Notes: generated from the letters alone by a model not told the origin. A stretch of 64,000 nt of DNA from Candidatus Moraniibacteriota bacterium (GCA_026396175.1 JAPLXG010000013.1:65267-129266); one strand, 5' to 3'. Shown: positions 4,918-61,342, numbered from the stretch's first letter. Translations and numbers: made by a program.

Positions 4918-5095
4918 GTGCGCCCACCAGGATTTCCGCCAGTGGGCGGATGACCGTTTGCTTAAAAGTCCGCCGGCTGGCGGATCTACCAGCGAGTTTT
5001 TTATTTGTGCGCCCACCAGGATTTCCGCCAGTGGGCGGATGACCGTTTGCTTAAAAGTCCGCCGGCTGGCGGATCTACCAGCGAGTTTTTTATTT
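4918..5095. repeat. two tandem units of about 89 bp that are degenerate tRNA-Lys copies disrupted by palindromic inserts
   Basis: The units at 4918-5006 and 5007-5095 share tgcgcccaccagga... and ...ccgtttgcttaaaag... with the authentic tRNA-Lys next door. The T-arm and anticodon-arm segments are replaced by the palindromes tccgccagtgggcgga and tccgccggctggcgga. Confidence 0.6.
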
Positions 5096-5096
5096 G

Positions 5097-5170
5097 TGCG
5101 CCCACCAGGATTCGAACCTGGGACCGTTTGCTTAAAAGGCAACTGCTCTACCAGACTGAGCTATAGGCGC
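5097..5170 (-). tRNA. tRNA-Lys (anticodon TTT)
   Basis: The minus-strand sequence gcgcctatagctcagtctggtagagcagttgccttttaagcaaacggtcccaggttcgaatcctggtgggcgca folds as a cloverleaf (7-bp acceptor, D-arm agctcagtctggtagagc, anticodon loop cttttaa, T-arm ccaggttcgaatcctgg). It is close to canonical bacterial tRNA-Lys. There is no encoded CCA. Confidence 0.8.
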
Positions 5171-5183
5171 ATGGTTTAAATTT

Positions 5184-5232
5184 AAGACCGTTTACTTAAT
5201 AGTCCGCCAGCCGGCGAATCTACCAGACTGAA
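5184..5232. repeat. tRNA-Lys-derived fragment with palindromic insert (left direct repeat flanking the GIY-YIG gene)
   Basis: ccgtttacttaatagtccgccagccggcgaatctaccagactgaactaacg is about 85% identical to the right-hand copy at 5519-5580. Confidence 0.5.
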
Positions 5233-5511
5233 CTAACGACATAAATTATTATTTTCTATTAAATTTTTTACAAACATTCTTCCTTGACAGCTTTTTAATT
5301 CCTTTTCTCTTTTCATTGCTTCACCCCTACTTCCAAAACTTTCCTCGTAAATCAACTTCCAGCATCCACTATTCTTACTCGTAAACGATGTCTTCTTATT
5401 TTTTAATACTCCATTATGTCTCAACAACCTATTTTCTAAATCAGCAGTCTGTCCAATATAGATCGCGTCTTTTTCTTTATTGTAAATTACGTAAGCTTTA
5501 AACATACTCAC
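5233..5511 (-). CDS. GIY-YIG nuclease domain protein (small, Slx1/YhbQ-like)
   Basis: 92 aa. The N-terminus AYVIYNKEKDAIYIGQTADLENRLLRH carries the GIY...YIG...R motif, followed by the conserved E (EAMKREKELK). Confidence 0.8.
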   Translation of the reverse strand: MSMFKAYVIYNKEKDAIYIGQTADLENRLLRHNGVLKNKKTSFTSKNSGCWKLIYEESFGSRGEAMKREKELKSCQGRMFVKNLIENNNLCR

Positions 5512-5518
5512 TTCCTAG

Positions 5519-5580
5519 GACCTTTTGCTTAATAGTCCGCCGGCTGGCGGATCTACCAGACTGAGCTATAGGCGCATAAT
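5519..5580. repeat. tRNA-Lys-derived fragment with palindromic insert (right direct repeat flanking the GIY-YIG gene)
   Basis: ccttttgcttaatagtccgccggctggcggatctaccagactgagctataggcgca ends with an exact copy of the 5' end of tRNA-Lys. Confidence 0.5.
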
Positions 5581-5729: not shown

Positions 5730-6251
5730 TTATCTGAGAATTCTTTTGTGGATCAGAAACATAAACACCAGCGGAGCCAGCATCCAAAAAAAAGCGAAAT
5801 TGGGCGAAACTAGATAATCATAGGAGCTGGGAGAAACATAGCCTAGGGCGATTTTTTTCGGCATAATAGTTAGCGCCACACTGAGCAGTAGCATCACTTC
5901 CAGAAAACTCATCACAAACACTCGCCAGAGAAAACCTTTGCCGGAACCAGAAAGTTGAATCTCAAACATTTTCTTTCCCAGCACGGTGAGTAAAATTATT
6001 ATGCCAAAAAATAGCATCAAGCTATAGGTATAGTCAGGGAGAATCCCCTTGGGAAAAACGCCCAGGAGCGCGACAGAAACATAGATATTGATAAGCACCG
6101 TGATTAACTTGAAGCGGCCAATCGACATCCCGAACACAAAACTAATGAGCGCGATGGCTAGAAATAGCATCACGTCCTGAGATGTTTTTGAGGAAAGTCC
6201 CAATTGAGAAAAAATCAAACTAAGATTCATTTTGGTTTTATCCCCCACCAC
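5730..6251 (-). CDS. hypothetical polytopic membrane protein
   Basis: 173 aa with four or five hydrophobic helices and no recognisable motif. Confidence 0.45.
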   Translation of the reverse strand: MVGDKTKMNLSLIFSQLGLSSKTSQDVMLFLAIALISFVFGMSIGRFKLITVLINIYVSVALLGVFPKGILPDYTYSLMLFFGIIILLTVLGKKMFEIQLSGSGKGFLWRVFVMSFLEVMLLLSVALTIMPKKIALGYVSPSSYDYLVSPNFAFFWMLAPLVFMFLIHKRILR

Positions 6252-6513
6252 TTTTTTGCTCGCACTTATTAAGTGAACAGGGAATGTTTTGTTAGTTTTT
6301 TTATTAGTTTATCAAAATAATTCTGCAGATAAATAAAACTCCCAAAGCAAAAAAGTGGTAAGGGATGAATTATTTTTATACTCTTATCTTACTCTCTTTT
6401 TATTTTTTTGTCACGAAGAAAAATTACATCAAGAGGCAGGCAAACTCGAACCTGCAAAAGCTTCAAAATTGAGCCCTTCCTGTTCACTGATTCCTGTTCA
6501 TTGTTCACTGTTT

Positions 6514-11130: not shown

Positions 11131-11774
11131 TATCCAGAATAATTTTTTCTTTTATTATACAACCTTTCTGTAAATCCACCTTGCTGTAAGAAGTCTTGAC
11201 TAAGTTTTTTTAGTTGTTGATCCAGCAAGTAATTCGTTTGATGAATAAGACAGATTAGCGCATTAGCAGCCGTTTCTGCATTTTTCAAATAAGTCTCATA
11301 CGTCCTATACGACCTATCTTGACTATAAGCAAGATTACGAACTGTTTTCGCTTCTTGCGAATCCTTGACCCATATTCACAACCTACCCTGCCGCAAGAAA
11401 TCTTCATAATCAATTAGCAATTCCTCCAAACTCGCCCGAGCCACACTGGTCAATTTTATTTCCGTCTTTTTTGAAGTTCCAGAGGCCTGGCTTCCTTCGG
11501 CAATATTTTGTCGACCGCTTCTCGCCGCTTGCACCATTTGATCATGCGTCCTATTTGTCCCATATGTCCTATCGATGAATTTTTTGCAAAAATCCACCGT
11601 TAAGTCATAGACCAAAGTAGCCATTTGGTATGATTTTAGATTGCGGTATCCTCCATGCTTAAAGAGCAACTCGTTTCTATCAGACAGATCGGACCCATTG
11701 GACATATTTTTGAGATAATCGCCCATGATTTGCCAAGAAACAGCGAGGAGAAAAATCCCCTCGCTGTTTATCAA
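11131..11774 (-). pseudogene. four-helix-bundle protein (PF05635-like) with apparent frameshift
   Basis: ORF 11376-11774 encodes the core (SYQMATLVYDL...NIAEGSQASG...LEELLIDYEDFLRQ). The family's usual C-terminal continuation (WVKDSQEAKTVRNLAYSQ...ANALICLIHQTNYLLDQQLKKLSQDFLQQGGFTERL) is readable in another frame at 11131-11375. Confidence 0.55.
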
Positions 11775-11777
11775 AAT

Positions 11778-13700
11778 TTATTCTTTTTTACCTTCTTCTT
11801 TTGACTCATCCTTCGTCTCCGCATCTTTCACCCCGTCCGCCGATGAGGCGGGTTCGCCTTCCTTTGGTTGTTCCCCAGCTGGTGGCGTCTGCGCCTCCTG
11901 CGCAGCCTTATACAACTTCTCCCCAATCTTCTGCGCTTCTTGAGAAAGCTCTTCAGTCGCTTTTTTGATCGCTTCAGAGTCATCGCCGTCCTTTACTTTT
12001 TTCAAAGCCTCAATTTTTTCTTCGACTGGTTTTTTCTCGTCGGCAGTTATTTTGTCTCCGGCGTCGCGAAGGGCTTTTTCAGTTGTATAGACCAGCGTGT
12101 CGGCCATATTCTTGGCTTCGATGGCTTCTTTCTTTTTTTTGTCTTCTTCCGCGTGGACTTCGGCGTCTTTTTTCATCTTCTCGATTTCTTCCTTGGAAAG
12201 TCCCGTGGAAGCTTCGATGCGGATTGATTGTTCTTTATTCGTGGCTTTGTCTTTCGCTTTGACGTTTAGGATTCCATTGGCATCGATGTCAAAAGTCACT
12301 TCGACTTGCGGAATGCCCCGAGGTGAAGGTGGAATGCCATCGAGAATGAACCGTCCTAAAGTTTTATTGTCAGCAGCCATTTCTCTTTCGCCTTGCAGAA
12401 CATGAATTTCCACGGATGGTTGATTGTCAGCGGCGGTTGAAAAGACTTGAGATTTGGATGTTGGGATTGTCGTGTTTCGGTCGATGAGCGGTGTGCGCAC
12501 GCCTCCCATTGTTTCAATTCCAAATGTCAGTGGTGTCACGTCAAGAAGCAAAACATCTTTCACATCTCCTTGCAAAACTCCACCTTGAATGGCGGCGCCG
12601 AGCGCAACCACCTCATCAGGGTTCACGGTGATATTTGGTTTTTTGCCAAAGAATTTTTCCACGGTCGTTAGCACGAGTGGCATTCTGGTCATTCCTCCAA
12701 CCAAGACCACTTCGTTGATGTCAGTTACAGAAAGTTTTGCATCAGCCAAAGCTTTTTTGGTTGGCTCAAGTGTTTTTTGGATCAAATCCCCTACCAATTC
12801 TTCCAATTTGGAACGAGTCAGTTTCATCACCAGATGCTTTGGACCATTGGCGTCCGTTGTAATGAAGGGCTGATTAATTTCTGATTCCATCGCCGTGGAA
12901 AGTTCAATCTTAGCTTTTTCCGCTGCTTCTTTGATTCTCTGCAAGGCCAATGAATCCTTGGAAAGATCAATTGCTTCTTGTTTTTTGAATTCGGAAATGA
13001 TCCAGTTGATGATGATTTGATCAAAGTCGTCTCCTCCAAGGTGCGTGTCACCATTGGTTGATTTCACTTCCACTGTGTCTTCCGACACTTCCAAAATGGA
13101 AATGTCAAAAGTTCCCCCGCCTAAATCATAGACAGCAATTTTCTCGTCTTTCTTTTTGTTGAAACCATAGGCCAAAGCAGCCGCTGTTGGTTCATTGATA
13201 ATTCGGCGCACATTGAGGCCGGCAATTTCACCGGCTTCTTTGGTCGCTTTTCTTTGCGCGTCGTCAAAGTAGGCTGGAACAGTAATCACGGCTTCAGTAA
13301 TTTTCTCACCCAACTTTTCCTCCGCATCCGCTTTCAGTTTTGCCAAAATCATCGCCGAAATTTCTTGTGGAGTATATTCTTTATCGCCCATCACTACTTT
13401 CACGCCACCATTGGCTTTCACAATTTTATAGGGAAGCAACTTTAAATCACGTTGCACTTCTTCGTCTTCAAACTTTCGTCCAATCAATCGCTTGATGGAA
13501 TAGAGCGTATTGCCCGGATTGGTCACAGCTTGGCGCTTAGCCAAAAGCCCGACCAATCTTTCATTGGACTTGGAAATCGCCACCATCGACGGTGTTGTGC
13601 GATTTCCCTCCTTGTTTTCGATAATGCTGGGCGAACCACCTTCCACGACTGCCATGGCAGAGTTGGTCGTCCCCAAATCGATTCCTAATATTTTACTCAT
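11778..13700 (-). CDS. dnaK: chaperone DnaK (Hsp70)
   Basis: 640 aa. [16 protein letters not shown] and the other Hsp70 signatures run along the full length, ending in an acidic C-terminus. Confidence 0.97.
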
Positions 13701-17624: not shown

Positions 17625-18065
17625 CTAAAGTCCCATCACTTGGATGATGATATCGCGCTTTCTCGCGCCGTCCATTTCCGCCACAAAAATATTCTGCTTG
17701 GAAGTAAGGATCATATGCCCTTTTTCCAAGGGAACCGTTTCACTGACTCCCAAAAGCATCACCTTACAATGCGAATGACCGTTGCTCCTCCCATCCGATT
17801 TATTTTTTTTAGCCAGCTCAAAAAGATCATGGGAATAGCGCTCGTCAACCGGCGCCAAGCGATAGAGTACACGGGTAAAGTCTTGCAAAAGCATCGGTTC
17901 GTTGTGATTGACGAAAATTCCAGCCGAAGTATGCGGAGAATAGATCAGCACCGTCCCTTCGCGTACGCCGGAAAGACTGACCACTTCCGCCACCTTGTCG
18001 GTAATGTCAATAATTTCCACACTTGTGGTGCTGGTTATTTCGATTTTTTTGCGGAATATTTTCAT
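17625..18065 (-). CDS. YjbQ/UPF0047 family secondary thiamine-phosphate synthase-like protein
   Basis: 146 aa. Pattern IDITDKV...SPHTSAGIF...HSHCKVMLLG...TSKQ is typical of the YjbQ family. Confidence 0.7.
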   Translation of the reverse strand: MKIFRKKIEITSTTSVEIIDITDKVAEVVSLSGVREGTVLIYSPHTSAGIFVNHNEPMLLQDFTRVLYRLAPVDERYSHDLFELAKKNKSDGRSNGHSHCKVMLLGVSETVPLEKGHMILTSKQNIFVAEMDGARKRDIIIQVMGL

Positions 18066-18175
18066 ATTATTATCCGATACGAAACTACGAATTGAATCCG
18101 AATCTACGAAAAAAATTCAGTAGCATTTCGTAGAGTTCGTAGATTCGCATATATTTCGTTGTTTCGAATCGGTTA

Positions 18176-19300
18176 TTATTTTTTAAACACGCCCGCCACC
18201 TTTTTGACCACGCTTTTATCCAGCGCTCTTGGAATTATTCTATCACGAGTTGGCTTTTTTACCAAACTGGCAATCGCATAGGCGACTTTAATTTTATGCT
18301 CTTCGGTAATTTTTTTAATTTTATTATCCAACACGCCACGAAAAATTCCCGGAAACGCCAAAACATTGTTAATTTGATTGGCAAAGTCCGAGCGGCCAGT
18401 CGCCACAATGCGCGCGCCACCAGCTTTGGCACGGTCCGGCAAAATTTCCGGAATGGGATTAGCCATCGCAAACACAATTGAATTTTTATTCATCTGCGCG
18501 ATATCTTCTTCCGTGAGAATATTGGGCGCTGAAACGCCAATAAACACGTCCGCGAGATGAAGTGCGTCACGCACATTACCTTTGACATTTTCCGGATTCG
18601 TAATTTTGGCAATTTCCATTTTTGATCCATTAAGCCCACCCGCTCTTTCTCGATAGATTATCCCCATCCGATCGAGCATAATGATATTTTTCGCCCCCGC
18701 TTTAATGAGCAATTTGGCAATCGCCACACCCGCCGCGCCTGTCCCGGAAATGACAATTTTAATTTTTGCTAAATCTTTTTTAACCACTTTCAACGCATTG
18801 ATGAGTCCGGCCAGAACCACAATCGCCGTCCCATGTTGGTCATCGTGGAAAACCGGAATATCCAATTCTTTTTTCAAGCGTTCCTCAATCTCAAAACAAC
18901 GCGGCGCGCAAATATCTTCCAGGTTTATTCCGCCAAAAGTTGGCGCCAGTGCTTTTATTATTTTAATAATCTCCTGCGTATCTTGCGTCGCAAGCACAAT
19001 CGGAATCGCATCCACTCCGGCAAGTTCTTTCATCAGCAAAGCTTTGCCTTCCATCACCGGTAGCGCCGCTTCTGGACCAATATTGCCCAGGCCTAGTACC
19101 GCCGAGCCATCAGAAATCACCGCCACAGTATTTTTGCGAATGGTATATTGAAAAGATAATTTTTTATCCTTGGCAATTGCCTTCGACACTTCCGCCACCC
19201 CCGGAGTATACAAAACCGCCAGATTCTTATCTGTTAATTTAACTTTACTGCAAATTTCAATTTTCCCGCCGATTTTTTTGGAAAGCTTAATTGAATTCAT
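18176..19300 (-). CDS. NAD(P)-dependent malic enzyme (short form)
   Basis: 374 aa. LAVLYTPGVAE, NIGPEAALPVMEGKALL, the Rossmann stretch ISGTGAAGVA, and FAMANPIPE are present. Confidence 0.9.
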   Translation of the reverse strand: MNSIKLSKKIGGKIEICSKVKLTDKNLAVLYTPGVAEVSKAIAKDKKLSFQYTIRKNTVAVISDGSAVLGLGNIGPEAALPVMEGKALLMKELAGVDAIPIVLATQDTQEIIKIIKALAPTFGGINLEDICAPRCFEIEERLKKELDIPVFHDDQHGTAIVVLAGLINALKVVKKDLAKIKIVISGTGAAGVAIAKLLIKAGAKNIIMLDRMGIIYRERAGGLNGSKMEIAKITNPENVKGNVRDALHLADVFIGVSAPNILTEEDIAQMNKNSIVFAMANPIPEILPDRAKAGGARIVATGRSDFANQINNVLAFPGIFRGVLDNKIKKITEEHKIKVAYAIASLVKKPTRDRIIPRALDKSVVKKVAGVFKK

Positions 19301-37026: not shown

Positions 37027-37160
37027 CTACGAATTACGAACAAATACGAATGTACGAATAAATGCGAAATACTTTAAGAAAAATTAGGCTCAGTTTAAAT
37101 TATATTCGTACATTCGTACAAATTCGTAATTCGTAGAGAAAACCGTAATTCGTAGAGAAA
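37027..37160. repeat. TTCGTA/TACGAA hexamer-rich repeat array just upstream of cysS
   Basis: tatattcgtacattcgtacaaattcgtaattcgtagag recurs nearly identically at 20838-20877. Related arrays are at 18076-18175, 22813-22876 and 61160-61200. Confidence 0.5.
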
Positions 37161-42730: not shown

Positions 42731-42864
42731 AATTTCTAATTTTAAATTTCTAATTTCTAAACAATTCTCAATTTTTTAATGATATAATTTTCTAAACTAA
42801 TTTAAAATTTAGTAATTGGAAATTGTTTGAAAATTGAAAATTAGAAATTGAAAATTTACCCAAA

Positions 42865-46337: not shown

Positions 46338-46410
46338 GCAAAGTTCCGAGGCTAGGACTCGAACCTAGATTAACAGAGTCAGAGTCTGTTGTCCTATTCA
46401 TCCCGCACCA
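46338..46410 (-). pseudogene. tRNA-like fragment (anticodon-arm plus T-arm, no matching acceptor 5' strand)
   Basis: The minus-strand read shows an anticodon arm acaga-ctctgac-tctgt and a T-arm ctagg-ttcgagt-cctag, but no complementary acceptor 5' strand. The motif tggtgcggga is shared with an inverted partial copy at 46509-46545 on the other side of tRNA-Gln. Confidence 0.35.
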
Positions 46411-46422
46411 TTTTTTAATCTG

Positions 46423-46494
46423 TTGGGTCGGTAGGATTCGAACCTACGCATGATGGGATCAGAACCCATTGCCTTACCGCTTGGCTACGACCCA
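46423..46494 (-). tRNA. tRNA-Gln (anticodon CTG)
   Basis: The minus-strand sequence tgggtcgtagccaagcggtaaggcaatgggttctgatcccatcatgcgtaggttcgaatcctaccgaccca has a U1:A72 pair and GCCAAGCGGTAAGGC D-arm as in bacterial tRNA-Gln, anticodon loop ttctgat, and T-arm gtaggttcgaatcctac. Confidence 0.8.
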
Positions 46495-46508
46495 GTTTGT
46501 TTTTAAAA

Positions 46509-46634
46509 AATGGTGCGGGACAAATTAGACGATCTCGGAACTTTAAGCGGGATAAACGCCACCCATTGCCCTACCGGCTCCGCCTGCCTACCCTGCCTAC
46601 CGGCAGGCAGGCGGCAGGCAGAGCTACGACCCAA
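46509..46634. repeat. degenerate tRNA-derived and REP composite
   Basis: The inverted partial copy of the 46338-46410 fragment (tggtgcgggacaaattagacgatctcggaacttt) is followed by a degenerate tRNA-Gln 5' half (cccattgccctaccggc ... agctacgacccaat). That half is split by tandem REP palindromes (tccgcctgcctaccctgcctaccggcaggcaggcggcaggcag). Confidence 0.5.
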
Positions 46635-51783: not shown

Positions 51784-51957
51784 AAATCAACTACTTTCTG
51801 CTATTGCTCGAAAAATAATTTGAAATTTTCAATTCTAAATTTTAATTCAAAACTAAATTTATAAATTTTAAATAAATCTCTCACTTGCCTCCATTTAATC
51901 ATTTAGTCATTTAGACTTGATTTTAAATTGAAAATTGAAAATTGAAAATTTAGCCCC

Positions 51958-54890: not shown

Positions 54891-54928
54891 AGCGGATTTA
54901 ACGAGCTTTCTTCCCAGCCCATCCCGCA

Positions 54929-55225
54929 CTAACTTTTGCTTAAAGATTTTTTCATTCTTCTTTTTAGCTGTCCTAACGCTTGCCCATATTGTTTTAGCTG
55001 TTTTTCTCTTTCCCAAGCATCCTCCTCTGCAAAATACGCCTCATAATAAACAAGGCGCCATTTATGTCCTTTTGTAAATTTAGAATCATTGTTATTGTGC
55101 TGAAAAAATCTTTTTTTCAAATCATCAGTACAGCCATAATACAATTCTTCATCTTCATTTTTTAGAACATACACATATTGCATACTCGTAAAAGCAAAAG
55201 TTAGTGCGGGACAAGCTGCCCGCAA
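54929..55225 (-). CDS. GIY-YIG nuclease domain protein (second copy)
   Basis: YVYVLKNEDEELYYGCTDDLKKR gives the GIY/YIG/R motifs, with EREKQLK downstream. It overlaps the rlmN start by 25 nt. Confidence 0.75.
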   Translation of the reverse strand: MRAACPALTFAFTSMQYVYVLKNEDEELYYGCTDDLKKRFFQHNNNDSKFTKGHKWRLVYYEAYFAEEDAWEREKQLKQYGQALGQLKRRMKKSLSKS

Positions 55226-56772: not shown

Positions 56773-57777
56773 CTAAAGTTCGCATAAATTAGCCAGCCGT
56801 GCAAATTCATCATTCACAATTTTTTGCACTTGAGCGAGGACTAGTTTATTTTTCTCCGAAAAAAGATGCTTGAACCGTCCTTGAGTTTTTAGAAATTCCG
56901 TCACCGGCTTCAATGTTTTCGGTTCCCAATTCAGTTTATATTTCCCATTTTCAATTTCATAGAGCGGCCAGAAATTTGTCTCTGTCGCCAATTTGGCGAT
57001 GGCGACATATTGCGAGGTGGGAAATTTCCAATTATTTGTGCACGGCGAAAAAACCGTGAGAAAACTTGGCCCATCGACAGCCAAAGCTTTTTTCGCTTTC
57101 ATTTTGAGATCAGCAAGGTTGGCAATATTAGCTTGTGCGACATAAGCAATATTATGCGCTGCCACAATTCCCATCAAATTTTTGCGCAGCTCGACTTTGC
57201 CAAAAGATTCTTTTCCGATTGGTGTCGTTTCCGTCGCGGCGCCATAGGGCGTGGCGGAAGATCTTTGATTGCCGGTGTTCATGTACCCCCCATTATCATA
57301 GACCACATAGAGAAAATTATGCCCGCGTTCAAATGCGCCAGAAAGCGCTTGGAGTCCGATGTCATAGGTCCCGCCGTCTCCACCAAAGGCTACGAACTTG
57401 ATTTTTTTCGGCAAATCTAATTTGCCGCCCTGAGCTTGTCGAAGGGTCCCGTCCTGAGCTTGTCGAAGGGTCCCGTCCTGAGCTTGTCGAAGGGTCCCGT
57501 CCTGAGCTTGTCGAAGGGTTTTTTTCCGTAAAGCAAGATAGGCTCGCTCCACACCAGAAATAGTCGCTGCCGCATTTTCAAAGGCGCTGTGAATATATGG
57601 CACGTTCCATGCGGTGTAGGGATAGATGGTCGAAGTCACTTCAAGACATCCCGTCGCATTGGAAATGACCACCGGAGTCGCCGCCTCACCCAAAATTGTC
57701 CTAACAATCGAAGGAAACGCGCATCCCGCGCAAGCACTGTGACCGGGAGCTAGGTTTTTTGATAAATTTTCGTTCAT
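56773..57777 (-). CDS. porB: pyruvate:ferredoxin oxidoreductase, beta (TPP-binding) subunit
   Basis: Cys cluster GHSACAGC and TPP motif GGDGGTYDIG. It contains an in-frame 24-bp tandem repeat encoding (TLRQAQDG) x4. Confidence 0.9.
   Translation of the reverse strand: MNENLSKNLAPGHSACAGCAFPSIVRTILGEAATPVVISNATGCLEVTSTIYPYTAWNVPYIHSAFENAAATISGVERAYLALRKKTLRQAQDGTLRQAQDGTLRQAQDGTLRQAQGGKLDLPKKIKFVAFGGDGGTYDIGLQALSGAFERGHNFLYVVYDNGGYMNTGNQRSSATPYGAATETTPIGKESFGKVELRKNLMGIVAAHNIAYVAQANIANLADLKMKAKKALAVDGPSFLTVFSPCTNNWKFPTSQYVAIAKLATETNFWPLYEIENGKYKLNWEPKTLKPVTEFLKTQGRFKHLFSEKNKLVLAQVQKIVNDEFARLANLCEL
57429..57520. repeat. 24-bp tandem repeat (about 3.8 copies) inside porB
   Basis: cctgagcttgtcgaagggtcccgt repeats head to tail. 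The unit contains the cctgagc / gtcgaagg motifs seen in the family A MITE termini. Confidence 0.8.
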
Positions 57778-57831
57778 AAATGAAATTTTTAATTTTTGAA
57801 TTTTTACAATTTTTGAAATAATTTCTAAATC

Positions 57832-58182
57832 TTAATTTTTATCAGTGCAATTTCTTGATATTTTAGCGAAAATCAATGTCAATTCATGTGCTTCTTTCCA
57901 CAACTCCCTGCACTTTTCTTTTTTATCGGGAACGGCAATAGAAATCATTCTCGACCAATGATTTGATTCATTTGACTCCTTTTGACAAATCCTAATTTTA
58001 TTTTTAAAGTCTTTCCTGGAGCTAGCCTGATTAGCTTCCATATAATTAGCTCCCACGCTGGTAGCCGCCCGAACAAATTGATTGATCAATGGTTTTGTTA
58101 TTTGATTAACCGAAACTGACATGCAAAACAAAATTACATTCTCTCCAAATTTAGCCACTCTCTCTTCCAAGTCGTAGTCCAT
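57832..58182 (-). CDS. four-helix-bundle protein (PF05635-like), inserted between porB and porA
   Basis: 116 aa. QFVRAATSVGANYMEANQASSRKDF matches the 23S rRNA-IVS / four-helix-bundle family core. Confidence 0.7.
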   Translation of the reverse strand: MDYDLEERVAKFGENVILFCMSVSVNQITKPLINQFVRAATSVGANYMEANQASSRKDFKNKIRICQKESNESNHWSRMISIAVPDKKEKCRELWKEAHELTLIFAKISRNCTDKN

Positions 58183-58237
58183 TTGAAAATTAAAAATTAA
58201 GTCTTATTTAAAAATTACAAAATTAAAAATCCAAAAA

Positions 58238-59422
58238 TTATTGCAAGTATTTTTCCTTAAACTTCCCTCCCAAAATCTGCTCAATCTGTTTTTTGAAAAC
58301 ATCTCTCCCGCCCAAGCCATAGACAATGCTTTGTATTTGGTATTTAGTATCTGGCCCGCCTGCCGACGAGGCAGGTATTTGGTATAGGGAATTAATTATC
58401 TCAGAATACAAAGGTGGATGAGAGCCAATTGATTGCGCGCGATCCATCACAATTATTTCTTTGGCCTTTTTTAATGCACCGGCAATTTCCGCAAACGGAA
58501 ACGGCCGAAATAATTCAATTTTAATAAGCCCGACTTTCATGTTTCTCTTTTTTAATTCATCAACCGCATCCTTGGCTGTGCCTGCAACTGACCCGATCAA
58601 CACTAAAACTTTTTCCGCGTCTTTTACGTTGTATTCTTCAAATAAACCATATTTTCTGCCACTAATTTTCTCATATTCTTCTGTGACTTTTCTGTACTCT
58701 TCTGTGACCTTTTCTGTGGCCAATTCTTGATCAATCTTGAATTCAAAATAGGATTCTTGCAGGGCGACTGGACCATAGGTCACCGGGTTTTCAATGTCGA
58801 GCAGCGAATGTTCCGGAAGATAGTCTCCGATAAATTTTTTGACAATTTCGGCATCCAAAATTTCTAAATTTTCCACACTGTGCGAAGTATTAAATCCGTC
58901 CATAATCACCATTACCGGCAACCCAACGCGTTCGGCCAGTTTCATTCCGATGATTGTTTTGTCATAGACTTCCTGTGGATTTTCACAAAAAATTTGAATC
59001 CAGCCAGAGTCACGAGAACCCATCACATCACTGTGATCACCGTGAATGCTAAGCGGTGCTGAGAGCGCACGCGCCGCTACAACCATCAGAATCGGCAAAC
59101 GCATACCCGAGGCGATATAGAGCATTTCGTGCATATACGCCAAGCCCTGTGAGCTTGTGGCCGTCACTGTGCGCGCTCCGGCCGCTGAAGCGCCAATCGC
59201 CGCGCTCATCGCGCTATGCTCCGATTCCACTTCAATCATTTCCGTCTCCACCTCGCCGTCCGCCACAAATTTGGCATACGTTTCAATGATCGGTGTCTGT
59301 GGAGTAATCGGATAGACAGGCATCACATCCGGCTCAATTTGCTTCAAAGCGTACGCTGCTGCGTACCCACCAGTCAATGCTCTTCTGGTATTTGGTATTT
59401 TGTATTTAGTATTTGGTATCAT
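58238..59422 (-). CDS. porA: pyruvate:ferredoxin oxidoreductase, alpha subunit
   Basis: 394 aa. Matches the layout of the 2-oxoacid:ferredoxin oxidoreductase alpha domain. A REP palindrome is inserted in frame near the C-terminus (IPASSAGGPDTKY). Confidence 0.9.
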   Translation of the reverse strand: MIPNTKYKIPNTRRALTGGYAAAYALKQIEPDVMPVYPITPQTPIIETYAKFVADGEVETEMIEVESEHSAMSAAIGASAAGARTVTATSSQGLAYMHEMLYIASGMRLPILMVVAARALSAPLSIHGDHSDVMGSRDSGWIQIFCENPQEVYDKTIIGMKLAERVGLPVMVIMDGFNTSHSVENLEILDAEIVKKFIGDYLPEHSLLDIENPVTYGPVALQESYFEFKIDQELATEKVTEEYRKVTEEYEKISGRKYGLFEEYNVKDAEKVLVLIGSVAGTAKDAVDELKKRNMKVGLIKIELFRPFPFAEIAGALKKAKEIIVMDRAQSIGSHPPLYSEIINSLYQIPASSAGGPDTKYQIQSIVYGLGGRDVFKKQIEQILGGKFKEKYLQ

Positions 59423-59802
59423 GAATTTTTAATTCTCTTTAGGCCACTTATGAGCTTTGCTACTCTTATGCTTTGTGCCGCCAGTTTATCAAACTCTTCT
59501 TTTTTTAGATACTTTGTATCTCTTGCGATTATCAGTTGATTTTGAAGTTCGGTCAATGAGCCATGCGCCATACAATAAAATTGATATTTATCTTTCGAAG
59601 TATTCCTGCTGAAACCTTCTGCGATATTAGAAGTGATAGAAACAGCCGCTCTGCGCATTTGATTTGTCAATCCGAATATCTCTTTACTTGGAAATTTTTC
59701 GGTTACTTTATAAACTATCAAAACAAATTTATGCCCTTCCTGCCAAGCAACCAAATCTGTAAAGGATCTTATTTTTATTTTTTGTTCCATACTATATACC
59801 AA
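59419..59802 (-). CDS. four-helix-bundle protein (PF05635-like), inserted between porA and porD
   Basis: SFTDLVAWQEGHKFVLIVYKVTEKFPSKEIFGLTNQMRRAAVSITSNIAEGFSR is the canonical family core. Confidence 0.8.
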   Translation of the reverse strand: MVYSMEQKIKIRSFTDLVAWQEGHKFVLIVYKVTEKFPSKEIFGLTNQMRRAAVSITSNIAEGFSRNTSKDKYQFYCMAHGSLTELQNQLIIARDTKYLKKEEFDKLAAQSIRVAKLISGLKRIKNS

Positions 59803-59805
59803 ATA

Positions 59806-60117
59806 CTATCTACCAGATACCATTTTAATTGCGCGGGCGGGGCAAACCTGAGCGCAAACTCCGCATCCTTTGCAAAATTCATAATCTATTTCCGCAATGC
59901 CTTTTTTATTCTTACTATTCACTGACTTCTGCTTGCCTGCCGAAGCCTTAGTGTAGGCAGGCTCACTGCTCATTGTTATCGAAGCATCGGGACAAAACGG
60001 CACGCAAGTCGCGCAACCGATGCATTTATCTTTGTCCACTTCCGGCTTCATATACCGCCAAGAACCAGTCCGGGGAGATTTTTTGATATCGTGTTTGATG
60101 ATTGCACCGTGCTCCAT
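59806..60117 (-). CDS. porD: pyruvate:ferredoxin oxidoreductase, delta (2x[4Fe-4S] ferredoxin) subunit
   Basis: CIGCATCVPFCPD and CKGCGVCAQVCPA. A REP-like insert (EPAYTKASAGKQKS) lies between the two cluster motifs. Confidence 0.88.
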   Translation of the reverse strand: MEHGAIIKHDIKKSPRTGSWRYMKPEVDKDKCIGCATCVPFCPDASITMSSEPAYTKASAGKQKSVNSKNKKGIAEIDYEFCKGCGVCAQVCPARAIKMVSGR

Positions 60118-60165
60118 GTGAGTTCTTTACTAATTACGAATAGCTTACTAATATACTAATTTTTG

Positions 60166-60570
60166 CTATTTAATATTTACAATTCTTTTATATCTAATTC
60201 CGTCGTTGGTAAAATAAACCAAGATTCCTAACTTTAAATTCACTGCTTTGAGATAAGAATATAGTTGCTCTATATCTTTCTTGGAAAAATAATTCTTCTG
60301 TTTTAATTCGATAACAATCCTATCTAGAACCAAAAAGTCAAAAAGATAGTATCCAATTTCTTTGCCTTTAAACTTTACTCTTGCTTTTAACTGCTCCTTG
60401 AGGGTTATGCCGTTTTCAGTAAAAATATTAGCAACTGCTTTTTGATAAAACTTTTCTTTATGTCCGTAACCAACATTATTAAAAACCTCAAAAATAAGCC
60501 CGATAATTTTATAACACTCCTCTTTATAAATTAACTCCTCCCTTGCTCTCATTAGTATATTCGTACACAA
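60166..60570 (-). CDS. GxxExxY family protein (PD-(D/E)XK-like), inserted between porD and porG
   Basis: ECYKIIGLIFEVFNNVGYGHKEKFYQKAV...YLFDFLVLDRIVIELK matches the GxxExxY family pattern. Confidence 0.7.
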   Translation of the reverse strand: MCTNILMRAREELIYKEECYKIIGLIFEVFNNVGYGHKEKFYQKAVANIFTENGITLKEQLKARVKFKGKEIGYYLFDFLVLDRIVIELKQKNYFSKKDIEQLYSYLKAVNLKLGILVYFTNDGIRYKRIVNIK

Positions 60571-60587
60571 TTAGTAATTCGTAAAGA

Positions 60588-61157
60588 CTACACTACATCA
60601 TATGCCTTCTCAATCGCCAAAATATTCTTTTCACAATTTTCTTTCCCAATCTTATCTTCAAAAATCTTGCGGAATTCTTCGAGGATACTTTCCAGCTTCA
60701 CCACTTCGGTCACTTTGATGATTTTGCCCAAAATCACTGTGTTTGGCCTTGGTTGACCAACGATGGCCATGGAAATTCCATTGGCATCCACGGCGTGAAT
60801 TTTTCCATCAAAACGAATAATGTCCCTGATTTCATGCGGGTGCTTGGTGGAATTGATAATCAACGCTTCATTTTTGTCCAAGCCTTCCGTCACCTTCTGA
60901 CTATCGAGCAGTGTGTCGTCGAGTACAACAACCACATCCGGATCAACCACCGGCTCCTTGGTACGAATAGCCTTGTTCGAGATGCGCAAATAGGTCTTGG
61001 TCGGCGCACCGCTCCGTTCCGGACCGAAGTTAGGAAAAGTTTGCACAAAATTCCCTTCAAGCACCGCCGCCTGCGCAATAATTTCCGCGGCCGTCTTTGC
61101 CCCTTGCCCGCCCCGCGCAAAAAAGATAATTTCCATTGTGTCCTTGTGATACTTCAT
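60588..61157 (-). CDS. porG: pyruvate:ferredoxin oxidoreductase, gamma subunit
   Basis: FFARGGQGAKTAAEI matches the POR gamma N-terminus. An alternative start at MEIIFF is possible. Confidence 0.88.
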   Translation of the reverse strand: MKYHKDTMEIIFFARGGQGAKTAAEIIAQAAVLEGNFVQTFPNFGPERSGAPTKTYLRISNKAIRTKEPVVDPDVVVVLDDTLLDSQKVTEGLDKNEALIINSTKHPHEIRDIIRFDGKIHAVDANGISMAIVGQPRPNTVILGKIIKVTEVVKLESILEEFRKIFEDKIGKENCEKNILAIEKAYDVV

Positions 61158-61342
61158 GTAGTCTCTACGAATTACGAATTTATACGAATATACGAATTCA
61201 GTAAATTAAAAACAACATTTACTTACTAAGATAAGTATAGCACAAAAAGACACACAAAAATAGAGCTGAAATAAAAAAGCTGTTCCGAGTCATTCCGACC
61301 AAGAACAGCTCGATTATACCCGCAGCATCTACACCGGCGTAG

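Follow-up and report, generated by a model that had tools for sequence, protein, structure and literature searches.

The operon for pyruvate:ferredoxin oxidoreductase (POR) in a Candidatus Moraniibacteriota genome carries a small additional gene at every junction between its four subunit genes, which raises the question of what these genes are and how they persist there. The locus lies on a 64,000-nt stretch of DNA (GCA_026396175.1 JAPLXG010000013.1:65267-129266), which is called the window below (W in pairwise comparisons) and along which all coordinates are counted; L-numbers are labels of recovered comparison loci. Read along the minus strand, seven open reading frames (ORFs) follow one another in a single orientation: porG, a gene of the GxxExxY family, porD, a four-helix-bundle (4HB) gene named HB1, porA, a second 4HB gene named HB2, and porB. 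A sequence-only reading of the window had described this order, with one co-oriented, tightly packed small ORF per junction, and its coordinates and families hold. It had also asked whether the inserts are mobile or addiction-like. On balance, and with some reserve, the evidence favors the view that the three inserts are promoter-less, selfish stem-loop cassettes, similar to intervening sequences (IVSs), which parasitise the transcription of the por operon.

Gaps between the genes of the operon measure 17-55 nt, except that HB1 and porA overlap by 4 nt (ATGA). All family assignments in the operon exceed the curated cut-offs in profile searches. The inserts, at a GC content of 0.27-0.36, are set apart in composition from the por genes, at 0.45-0.54. 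Among metagenome-assembled genomes of Candidatus Moranbacteria (Patescibacteria/Candidate Phyla Radiation, CPR), the PorA proteins share 76-85% identity with that of the window. The segment 59166-61198 is matched at 100% identity by three independent assemblies, so the arrangement is no assembly artefact.

Architecture of the cassettes

Each insert is a discrete cassette of about 440-470 bp, in which one small ORF stands between inverted arrays of tandem 7-8-nt units (Table 1). The sole ORF encodes either a 4HB or a GxxExxY protein. The repeated unit differs among the three inserts; the arms are 22-37 nt long and 84-91% complementary. For HB1, arrays of period 7 were located at 59386-59419 and 59789-59820 by Tandem Repeats Finder (TRF). 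When RNA folds of the whole cassettes were predicted, a long-range terminal stem formed by the arms closed all three of them, both in the minimum free energy and in the centroid structures. Ranked by pairing between their flanks, the inserts hold places 3, 5 and 7 among the 67 genes of the window.

The arms of HB1 extend into the neighboring genes. The 5' heptamer array supplies the last codons of porD (VSGR*; porD of L167 ends in ...MAKN* instead), and the 3' arm doubles as the coding sequence of the PorA N-terminus, MIPNTKYKIPNT. Both array-encoded termini are unlike those of relatives with an empty site.

The strongest flank pairing in the window belongs to porG (z -9.0) because the solo array directly upstream of this gene and the 5' arm of the GxxExxY cassette are complementary (inverted repeat I15, 60569-60592 / 61157-61180, 24 nt, 92%). 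The alternative stem would enclose porG. L167 has no such array upstream of porG. The solo array could serve as an alternative stem or be the relic of another cassette.

Cassettes shared between unrelated operons

Homologues of the GxxExxY gene were found in three operons: between porG and porD (L167, 94% identity), between pheS and pheT (L169-172, 76%) and between pilC and a pilin gene (L173-176, 65%). At all these sites, the gene is enclosed by arms of the form (T/C)CTTTAC(G/T)AATTAC...GTAATT(A/C)GTAAAGA. When the DNA was aligned across the three operons, the limits of homology coincided exactly with the arm termini; no direct repeats were evident in this alignment at the arm ends of four copies.

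The 4HB cassettes behave in a similar way. An HB1-like gene (73% identity) is located between genes for YcaO and a nitroreductase on a Portnoybacteria contig, within the same GTATNNN...NNNATAC arrays. AATTTYN arrays accompany HB2-like genes at L012, a separate locus, and at a site flanked by two pilin genes; four HB2-type contexts were recovered. Each protein subfamily retains its own array flavor across contexts. Judged from these alignments, arms and ORF travel together into unrelated operons with sharp boundaries. The mobile half of the earlier question is well supported, since the same cassettes stand in unrelated operons.

Some of these operons house both cargo types. A 4HB gene lies directly after pheT, downstream of the pheS|GxxExxY|pheT insertion (L171, 6051-6390), and another, downstream of pilC|GxxExxY, separates two pilin genes (L173, 4780-5148). 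Multiple colonisation of one operon is, therefore, a recurrent event.

As a separate observation on the YcaO locus, the gene upstream of the HB1-like cassette is read as two ORFs (127 + 358 amino acids, aa) in L085 2408-3951 vs one (514 aa) in L084 2407-3951. L085 is one of three near-identical Portnoybacteria contigs, and the split may be a frameshift or stop variant.

Occupancy of the por junctions in relatives

In total, 79 por loci were recovered from species-representative genomes, about 34 of them from Moranbacteria. A tree of PorA and PorB comprised 33 operons, and about 10 further loci were compared off-tree. In the non-CPR bacteria and archaea sampled, the four por genes abut. In the Moranbacteria, all three junctions are highly polymorphic, as the comparison of inserts across related operons that had been proposed from the sequence alone brought out. 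Measured against these operons, the three genes of the window are insertions. Within the shallow clade of the window (86-90% PorA+B identity), every genome shows a different combination.

The window holds GxxExxY at porG|porD, HB1 at porD|porA and HB2 at porA|porB. L167 has GxxExxY at the first junction, an empty second one and only a small hairpin at the third; L006 has a channel gene, HB1 and an empty junction; L002 has two empty junctions followed by HB2; and all three are empty in L004. L001, L003, L005 and L055 have an empty porD|porA junction and unrelated genes at porA|porB, and their porG|porD junction contains a hairpin (L001), a channel gene (L003, L055) or nothing (L005). All three inserts together were found in the operon of this genome only, among the 33 tree operons and about 10 further loci, which bears out the earlier impression that such an accumulation is unusual.

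HB1 at porD|porA is scattered across the whole tree (L006, L007, L031, L080, L081) and is also present in L177, L178 and L180. The empty porD|porA junctions have no arrays. ORF-less hairpins with the same TCTTTAC... arms and a loop of about 10-25 nt occupy porG|porD in L025, L027, L028 and L032. In L013 and L017, HB1 at porD|porA is degraded: the arms and remnants of the N- and C-terminus remain, and the middle is another repeat. A series of states can be followed at one site, from empty to ORF-less hairpin, occupied and degraded.

The junctions also accept other genes. Unrelated genes stand in line at porG|porD (L003, L006, L055, L177), porD|porA (L009) and porA|porB (L013, L015, L020, L024, L026, L027, L031, L178). 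Among them are genes for what by eye resembles a K+-channel/solute-binding fusion of about 345 aa, for proteins of NUDIX-, MazG- and DUF559-like appearance, for coiled-coil, membrane and PKD/MopE proteins, and for a trio of CarS, CDP-alcohol phosphatidyltransferase and PgpA. The por operon of this lineage is, hence, generally permissive to insertion. Neither this permissiveness nor the inverted heptamer arrays had been recorded in the sequence-only reading. No inverted arrays were detected around the unrelated genes at these same junctions (z about 0). A hairpin-loop integration site of the integron type was considered for the por junctions and rejected, as inverted arrays are missing around the channel, NUDIX, coiled-coil, membrane and lipid genes.

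The hairpins might instead be owned by the host, as intercistronic RNA elements (stabilisers akin to repetitive extragenic palindromic (REP) sequences or bacterial interspersed mosaic elements (BIMEs), processing sites, or translation regulators) with the ORFs as passengers in their loops. ORF-less hairpins at the same por junctions in many relatives and at other operon junctions of the window fit this explanation, as does the wide divergence of the heptamer units at porG|porD between genomes, with the structure kept. Direct heptamers just upstream of start codons are treated as putative regulators in Beggiatoaceae, cyanobacteria and Bacteroidetes (PMC4679880). Host ownership does not sit well, nonetheless, with the identical termini around GxxExxY in three unrelated operons, where homology ends at the arm ends, or with the array flavor that each protein subfamily keeps whatever its context. 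Hairpin-free empty junctions exist (L004, L002, L005), other inserted genes lack arrays, and the ORF-less hairpins are equally explicable as cassette derivatives resembling miniature inverted-repeat transposable elements (MITEs). Taken together, it seems unlikely that the hairpins are host property.

Selection and history

The cassette ORFs are under purifying selection. The dN/dS ratios were 0.084 for HB1 (W-L177), 0.077 for HB2 (W-L002) and 0.047 for GxxExxY (W-L167), in comparison with 0.02-0.24 for the por genes. The earlier view of the inserts as real, conserved coding genes of scattered families is supported.

Such constraint would also be shown by ancient accessory factors of POR, acting in assembly or regulation, which were inherited vertically in the Moranbacteria por operon and repeatedly lost. 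At least nine Moranbacteria operons that diverge from one another have an HB1 orthologue (68-89% identity) exactly at porD|porA, and HB1 overlaps porA translationally, both of which agree with a long-standing partnership. The phylogeny of the HB1 cassette is, nonetheless, uncoupled from that of the host. Across nine HB1-bearing operons, the identities of HB1 and PorA are uncorrelated (Spearman -0.04; Mantel p = 0.08). For instance, PorA is 82% and HB1 68.5% identical between W and L006, and the values are 72% and 78% between W and L080. Two flavors of HB1 arms, TATTTGGTATATAG and GTATTATGTATAATG, cross-cut the host tree. Vertical inheritance is further contradicted by the presence of the same cassettes in pheST, pil and YcaO operons and of the family in carAB, sdhAB, livGF and others, by the absence of the cassettes from most Moranbacteria por operons and all sampled non-CPR ones, and by the toleration of a degraded copy. 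An ancestral role in POR function is judged improbable on these grounds.

Distribution beyond the por operon

For HB1 alone, a single search returned over 7,000 close relatives of the PF05635/TIGR02436 type. When metagenomes were scanned with HB1, 80 loci (42-75% identity) were obtained from CPR and clearly GC-rich non-CPR hosts. Most of these loci follow the same design with lineage-specific units, such as GTATTNN/NNAATAC, GTTGAGR/YCTCAAC, GTGACRA/TYGTCAC, GCATTAG/CTAATGC and GGTTGAT/ATCAACC. A period-7 array was present in at least one 70-nt flank of 54 of the 73 evaluable 4HB genes (74%) and in both flanks of 23, vs 1.5% in control windows of the same loci. Strict heptamer arrays were concentrated around the 4HB genes, with a density within 110 nt of the gene ends 34 times that in the rest of these loci, and flank pairing reached z <= -3 in 37/73 genes. 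The cassette architecture is family-wide and extends across phyla.

The genes are usually oriented like both of their neighbors (43 of 55), with median spacers of 32 and 42 nt. They were found between pilB|pilC, carA|carB, sdhA|sdhB, livG|livF, dnaX|dnaB, dprA|topA and hisS|HIT. None of 40 related 4HB loci was located in an rRNA gene, and no rRNA was detected in the window by Rfam either. A literature search of incomplete coverage yielded no description of 4HB or GxxExxY genes enclosed by inverted heptamer arrays within protein-coding operons; an account of the Coxiella IVS (PMC4990558) comes closest. The widespread habit of these two large orphan families of lodging in operons is apparently undescribed.

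Encoded proteins

The GxxExxY protein probably starts at the ATG at 60552, in agreement with the database protein P0121. It scores 94.1 bits against TIGR04256 (cut-off 35) and 93.6 bits against PF13366 (cut-off 22), and its name-giving motif reads GHKEKFY. Across 49 homologues, the PD-(D/E)XK core shows no variation at E33, D72 and K84, and conservation of E82 reaches at least 90%. The AlphaFold2 model (mean predicted local distance difference test score of 90.3) was matched by Foldseek to Cas4 SSO0001 (2.7e-5), lambda and alkaline exonucleases, tRNA-splicing endonucleases and Hjc-type Holliday-junction resolvases. According to this model, the protein has a PD-(D/E)XK restriction-endonuclease-like fold with an intact D...ExK site. 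For the PDDEXK_3 family, the function is listed as unknown and multiple transfers are reported (PMC3424549).

HB1 probably starts at the ATG at 59790, as does the database protein P0001. It scores 127.7 bits against PF05635 (cut-off 33.8) and 117 bits against TIGR02436 (cut-off 24), and over residues 11-113 it matches, by sequence only, the pentameric four-helix bundle XCC0516 (PDB 2GSC; E 1.8e-20). The motif RxxxSxxxNxxE is present in both HB1 (RAAVSITSNIAE) and HB2 (RAATSVGANYME); the family consensus is quoted as GxxRxxxSxxxNxxE (PMC3936711). The two proteins can hardly be aligned (phmmer E 0.03), and recent duplication of one from the other was rejected for this reason. A hidden Markov model (HMM) built from close HB1 homologues alone missed HB2, and a mixed-seed HMM was used for the 4HB searches.

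Weak matches of HB1 to the bAvd family (PF22296, 27.4 bits; NF033474, 23.9 bits) recall the Avd accessory proteins of diversity-generating retroelements. The scores fall below the curated cut-offs (40 and 80 bits), neither a reverse transcriptase nor a template/variable repeat is adjacent, and the neighbors are por genes. Such an identity for the 4HB genes is almost certainly wrong.

As to the other half of the earlier question, toxin-antitoxin and other addiction or defense modules, which stabilise themselves by post-segregational killing, are typically small and scattered in distribution, as the inserts are. GxxExxY also has a weak Cas4-like match in PADLOC (E 0.0088), and 23S_rRNA_IVP genes located between cas genes have been interpreted as CRISPR-associated (PMC3936711). 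Each cassette contains, nonetheless, a single gene without a partner. No significant PADLOC match was obtained, with none at all for the 4HB proteins, and close relatives often show a clean empty site or an ORF-less remnant. The copies in cas loci agree with the habit of lodging between operon genes described above, and the present data suggest that the 23S_rRNA_IVP genes do no more than this there. In addition, expression of S23p in E. coli was not toxic (PMC4990558). The addiction part of the question can be answered in the negative with high probability.

A third 4HB gene of the window lies directly downstream of dnaK (11778-13700), after a terminator-like hairpin. It had been described as frameshifted; in fact, a single reading frame runs through the gene and is interrupted only by a TGA codon at 11376-11378. 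When this codon is read through, the product matches TIGR02436 and the suffix domain TIGR04258. The gene may be a nonsense pseudogene or contain a recoded stop.

Proposed mechanism and points against it

If the inserts are selfish stem-loop cassettes, they would be transcribed from the promoter of the host operon. The long-range stem would shield the cassette from the neighboring cistrons and is a probable substrate of RNase III. The expression of porA is probably coupled translationally to HB1 because the 3' arm covers the first porA codons and the HB1 stop overlaps the porA start; with such coupling, simple inactivation of the passenger would be costly. The encoded proteins may serve the maintenance or spread of the cassette itself. 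The GxxExxY protein could act as a structure-specific nuclease on hairpin or cruciform arms, and the 4HB protein could bind the repeat arrays.

Several observations weigh against this reading. No transposase, integrase or reverse transcriptase is associated with the cassettes, and no target-site duplication is evident at their boundaries, where short direct repeats had been proposed as a mark of insertion and inverted repeats were found. We infer stem formation, RNase III cleavage and translational coupling from the sequence. The folding of whole cassettes is unexceptional (z of -0.29 for GxxExxY, -1.73 for HB2 and -2.55 for HB1), and only the terminal stems stand out. The sense strand is more stable than the antisense strand in 24 of 36 loci (p = 0.025), a modest bias which weakly supports stem formation at the RNA level. 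No heptamer arrays flank the 4HB gene next to dnaK. ORF-less hairpins and heptamer arrays are also common elsewhere in this genome, so some arrays may be host features. The nearest HB1 homologues (75-89% identity) are all at porD|porA, which also fits long residence combined with repeated loss or allelic exchange.

The divergence of the cassettes is equally ambiguous. Per pair, nucleotide identity is 87-90% in the cassettes vs 73-83% in the flanking por genes, and dS is about 0.6-0.7 vs 1.1-1.7, a difference suggestive of later exchange and no more than that because dS above 1 approaches saturation and base composition may constrain the AT-rich cassettes. Despite these points, none of the rival explanations accounts for the shared arms at non-homologous sites as well as the selfish cassette does.

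Relation to known systems

Excision by RNase III has been demonstrated experimentally for the IVSs of Coxiella, Salmonella and Leptospira. The 23S IVS of Coxiella is regarded as selfish: its terminal stem measures 28 bp, the loop holds an S23p ORF with signs of decay, 3-4 tandem GACAGAT heptamers precede this ORF, and RNase III excises the element (PMC4990558). In CPR bacteria, 23S_rRNA_IVP ORFs occur within rRNA insertions (PMC11270868). The cassettes share with the ORF-containing 23S IVSs (Leptospira, Coxiella, Brucella, Xanthomonas) the S23p/PF05635 protein family, a sense-oriented ORF in a loop closed by terminal inverted repeats (HB1, HB2), tandem heptamers directly upstream of the ORF, a probable reliance on host transcription, and the existence of decayed and ORF-less versions. 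Unlike these IVSs, which occupy helix 25 or 45 of 23S rRNA, they reside in a protein-coding operon, and the HB1 arms run into the last codons of porD and the first of porA. Their ORFs experience strong purifying selection, whereas the Coxiella ORF is decaying, and a second cargo, the GxxExxY protein with its nuclease fold, is built on the same design. RNase III processing, experimental in the IVSs, is predicted here.

Cyanobacteria carry heptanucleotide tandem repeats known as short tandemly repeated repetitive (STRR) sequences. These and the intergenic TAACTGA repeats of Beggiatoaceae (MacGregor 2015, PMC4679880) resemble the cassette arms in forming short arrays of 2-6 tandem heptamers, mostly intergenic and forward, that end just before a start codon and have a lineage-specific unit. 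They differ in being direct repeats upstream of assorted genes, for which regulation is proposed, and in the passages retrieved the TAACTGA repeats are not connected with 4HB or GxxExxY genes, nor with a matching inverted array downstream.

MITEs, REP/BIME sequences and Rickettsia palindromic elements are likewise short elements, palindromic or with terminal inverted repeats, dispersed at intergenic and intercistronic sites. The ORF-less hairpins with cassette arms behave like non-autonomous copies, and some units are translated in frame in host genes (PorA N-terminus, PorB insertion). In contrast to this group of elements, the cassettes have no recognisable transposase (DDE, RAYT/Y1) associated with them, and no target-site duplication was seen; their arms are tandem heptamers, and their cargo is a 4HB or a minimal PD-(D/E)XK protein.

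A further parallel is offered by the free-standing homing endonuclease genes of T4-like phages (seg, mob). These are also small selfish genes in line between conserved co-transcribed genes, with patchy occupancy of junctions across relatives and an insert phylogeny incongruent with that of the host, and the GxxExxY protein, with its nuclease fold and intact D...ExK site, is comparable to them. In contrast, the 4HB proteins have no nuclease domain and the cassettes have inverted-repeat arms. The presence of the same cassette at non-homologous sites looks like transposition rather than homing.

Features and other repeats of the window

The coordinates of the por genes, cassettes and related features are given in Table 1. 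Further ORF-less hairpins similar to the one listed there were found at 18059-18187, 42731-42849 and 51817-51950 (inverted repeats I5, I1, I3 and I2, with the listed hairpin included). The hairpin at 37027-37136 has the look of a MITE related to the arms of the GxxExxY cassette.

Table 1 Features of the por operon, its cassettes and related elements in the window
Feature	Coordinates	Strand	Details
porG (gamma subunit)	60588-61157	-	PF01558 2.2e-36; TIGR02175 2e-56
GxxExxY gene	60166-60570 as first called; ORF 60166-60552	-	128 aa; PF13366 1.3e-26; TIGR04256
porD (delta, 2x[4Fe-4S] subunit)	59806-60117	-	TIGR02179 9e-26
HB1 gene	59419-59802 as first called; ORF 59419-59790	-	123 aa; PF05635 2.5e-37
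porA (alpha subunit)	58238-59422	-	PF01855, PF17147
HB2 gene	57832-58182	-	116 aa; PF05635 1.1e-11 (45.3 bits); TIGR02436 2.4e-17 (63.1 bits)
porB (beta, thiamine pyrophosphate-binding subunit)	56773-57777	-	NF008819 1.4e-102
GxxExxY cassette	60124-60587	-	inverted repeat I4: 60124-60160 / 60551-60587, 37 nt, 84%, 390 nt apart
GxxExxY 5' arm	60551-60587	-	TCTTTACGAATTACTAAT..TACGAATATACTAAT
GxxExxY 3' arm	60124-60160	-	ATTAGTATATTAGTA..ATTCGTAATTAGTAAAGA
HB1 cassette	59386-59822	-	inverted repeat I14: 59393-59419 / 59796-59822, 27 nt, 85%
HB1 5' arm	59796-59822	-	GGTATCT GGTAGAT AGTATTT GGTAT...
HB1 3' arm	59386-59419	-	ATACCAA ATACTAA ATACAAA ATACCAA
HB2 cassette	57784-58240	-	inverted repeat I21: 57785-57806 / 58209-58230, 22 nt, 91%
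HB2 5' array	58186-58240	-	A/T-rich heptamer/octamer (TRF)
HB2 3' array	57784-57817	-	TRF
Solo ATTCGTA-type heptamer array	61157-61197	-	TRF 61166-61197; directly upstream of porG
ORF-less hairpin	37027-37136	.	TACGAAT/ATTCGTA arrays; between two co-oriented genes
Third 4HB gene	11133-11774	-	directly downstream of dnaK, after terminator-like hairpin

Repeats have also entered the coding sequences of the operon. In porB, an in-frame tandem insertion of four 24-nt units (57425-57519; TRF, 98% matches) encodes TLRQAQD x4; it is specific to the window and missing in the nine relatives aligned. In porA, an in-frame, repeat-derived loop insertion at about 58340-58390, common to L167, combines a CCTGCC..GGCAGG mini-hairpin with ATACCAA heptamers and encodes PASSAGGPDTKYQIQ. 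A CCTGCC...GGCAGG insertion also lies within a variable loop of porD, at about 59935-59975. The in-frame insertions of these three subunits resemble the palindromic elements found in coding regions of Rickettsia.

Two GIY-YIG genes of the window are bracketed by inverted repeats that are not heptamer arrays. The first, at 54929-55225 (Pfam 2.9e-13), has an inverted repeat at 54915-54941 / 55192-55218 (27 nt, 89%) which overlaps the 3' end of an rlmN-like gene. The second, at 5233-5511 (Pfam 6.7e-15), has the palindromic unit TCCGCCAGCCGGCG at 5203-5216 / 5538-5551. GIY-YIG genes may represent a third cargo type with the habit of an ORF in a stem-loop.

Other repeats touch tRNA genes. A tRNA-Gln gene (46422-46494) is placed within a 28-nt inverted repeat containing CCCGCAC/GTGCGGG (46391-46530). 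This motif recurs on the flanks of the GIY-YIG gene at 54929, and a similar inverted pair is present at 6237-6260 / 6346-6369. A perfect 89-bp tandem repeat at 4918-5112 (2.2 copies, 100% matches), which abuts or overlaps a tRNA-Lys gene (5096-5170), includes palindromic TCCGCCAG..GGCGGA units.

Conclusion

The putatively selfish cassettes of the por operon invite a wider, tentative interpretation. A single pan-bacterial class of mobile stem-loops, with inverted arrays of lineage-specific heptamers as arms, might carry the PF05635 4HB and GxxExxY genes as cargo. The protein would recognise its own arrays, in RNA or in a DNA hairpin or cruciform, to copy, protect or move the cassette, and the ORF-less hairpins would be non-autonomous members. 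Doubtful as this generalisation is at present, it would, if true, unite three poorly explained phenomena, i.e., the 23S rRNA IVSs, the dispersed heptanucleotide repeats of the STRR/TAACTGA type and the 23S_rRNA_IVP genes that have been reported as CRISPR-associated; all of them would be specialised for life in conserved transcription units of high expression, which they leave intact.

To our knowledge, no function has been assigned to PF05635/TIGR02436 and PF13366/TIGR04256, and we know of no settled account of the origin of rRNA intervening sequences, a question open since about 1990. If the 4HB and GxxExxY genes are stem-loop cassette cargo, a concrete and testable model would be available for two large orphan families, with array stems that form, processing by RNase III, recognition of the arrays by the protein, and a structure-specific nuclease as its elements. 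The model offers a possible origin of dispersed heptamer repeats and cautions against guilt-by-association, as when 23S_rRNA_IVP is scored as CRISPR-associated for its position between cas genes. For the biology of the CPR, the window shows an essential, conserved operon of energy metabolism with inserts, selfish in the reading favored here, at every junction and in-frame repeats in three subunits, whose genes are still under strong purifying selection.

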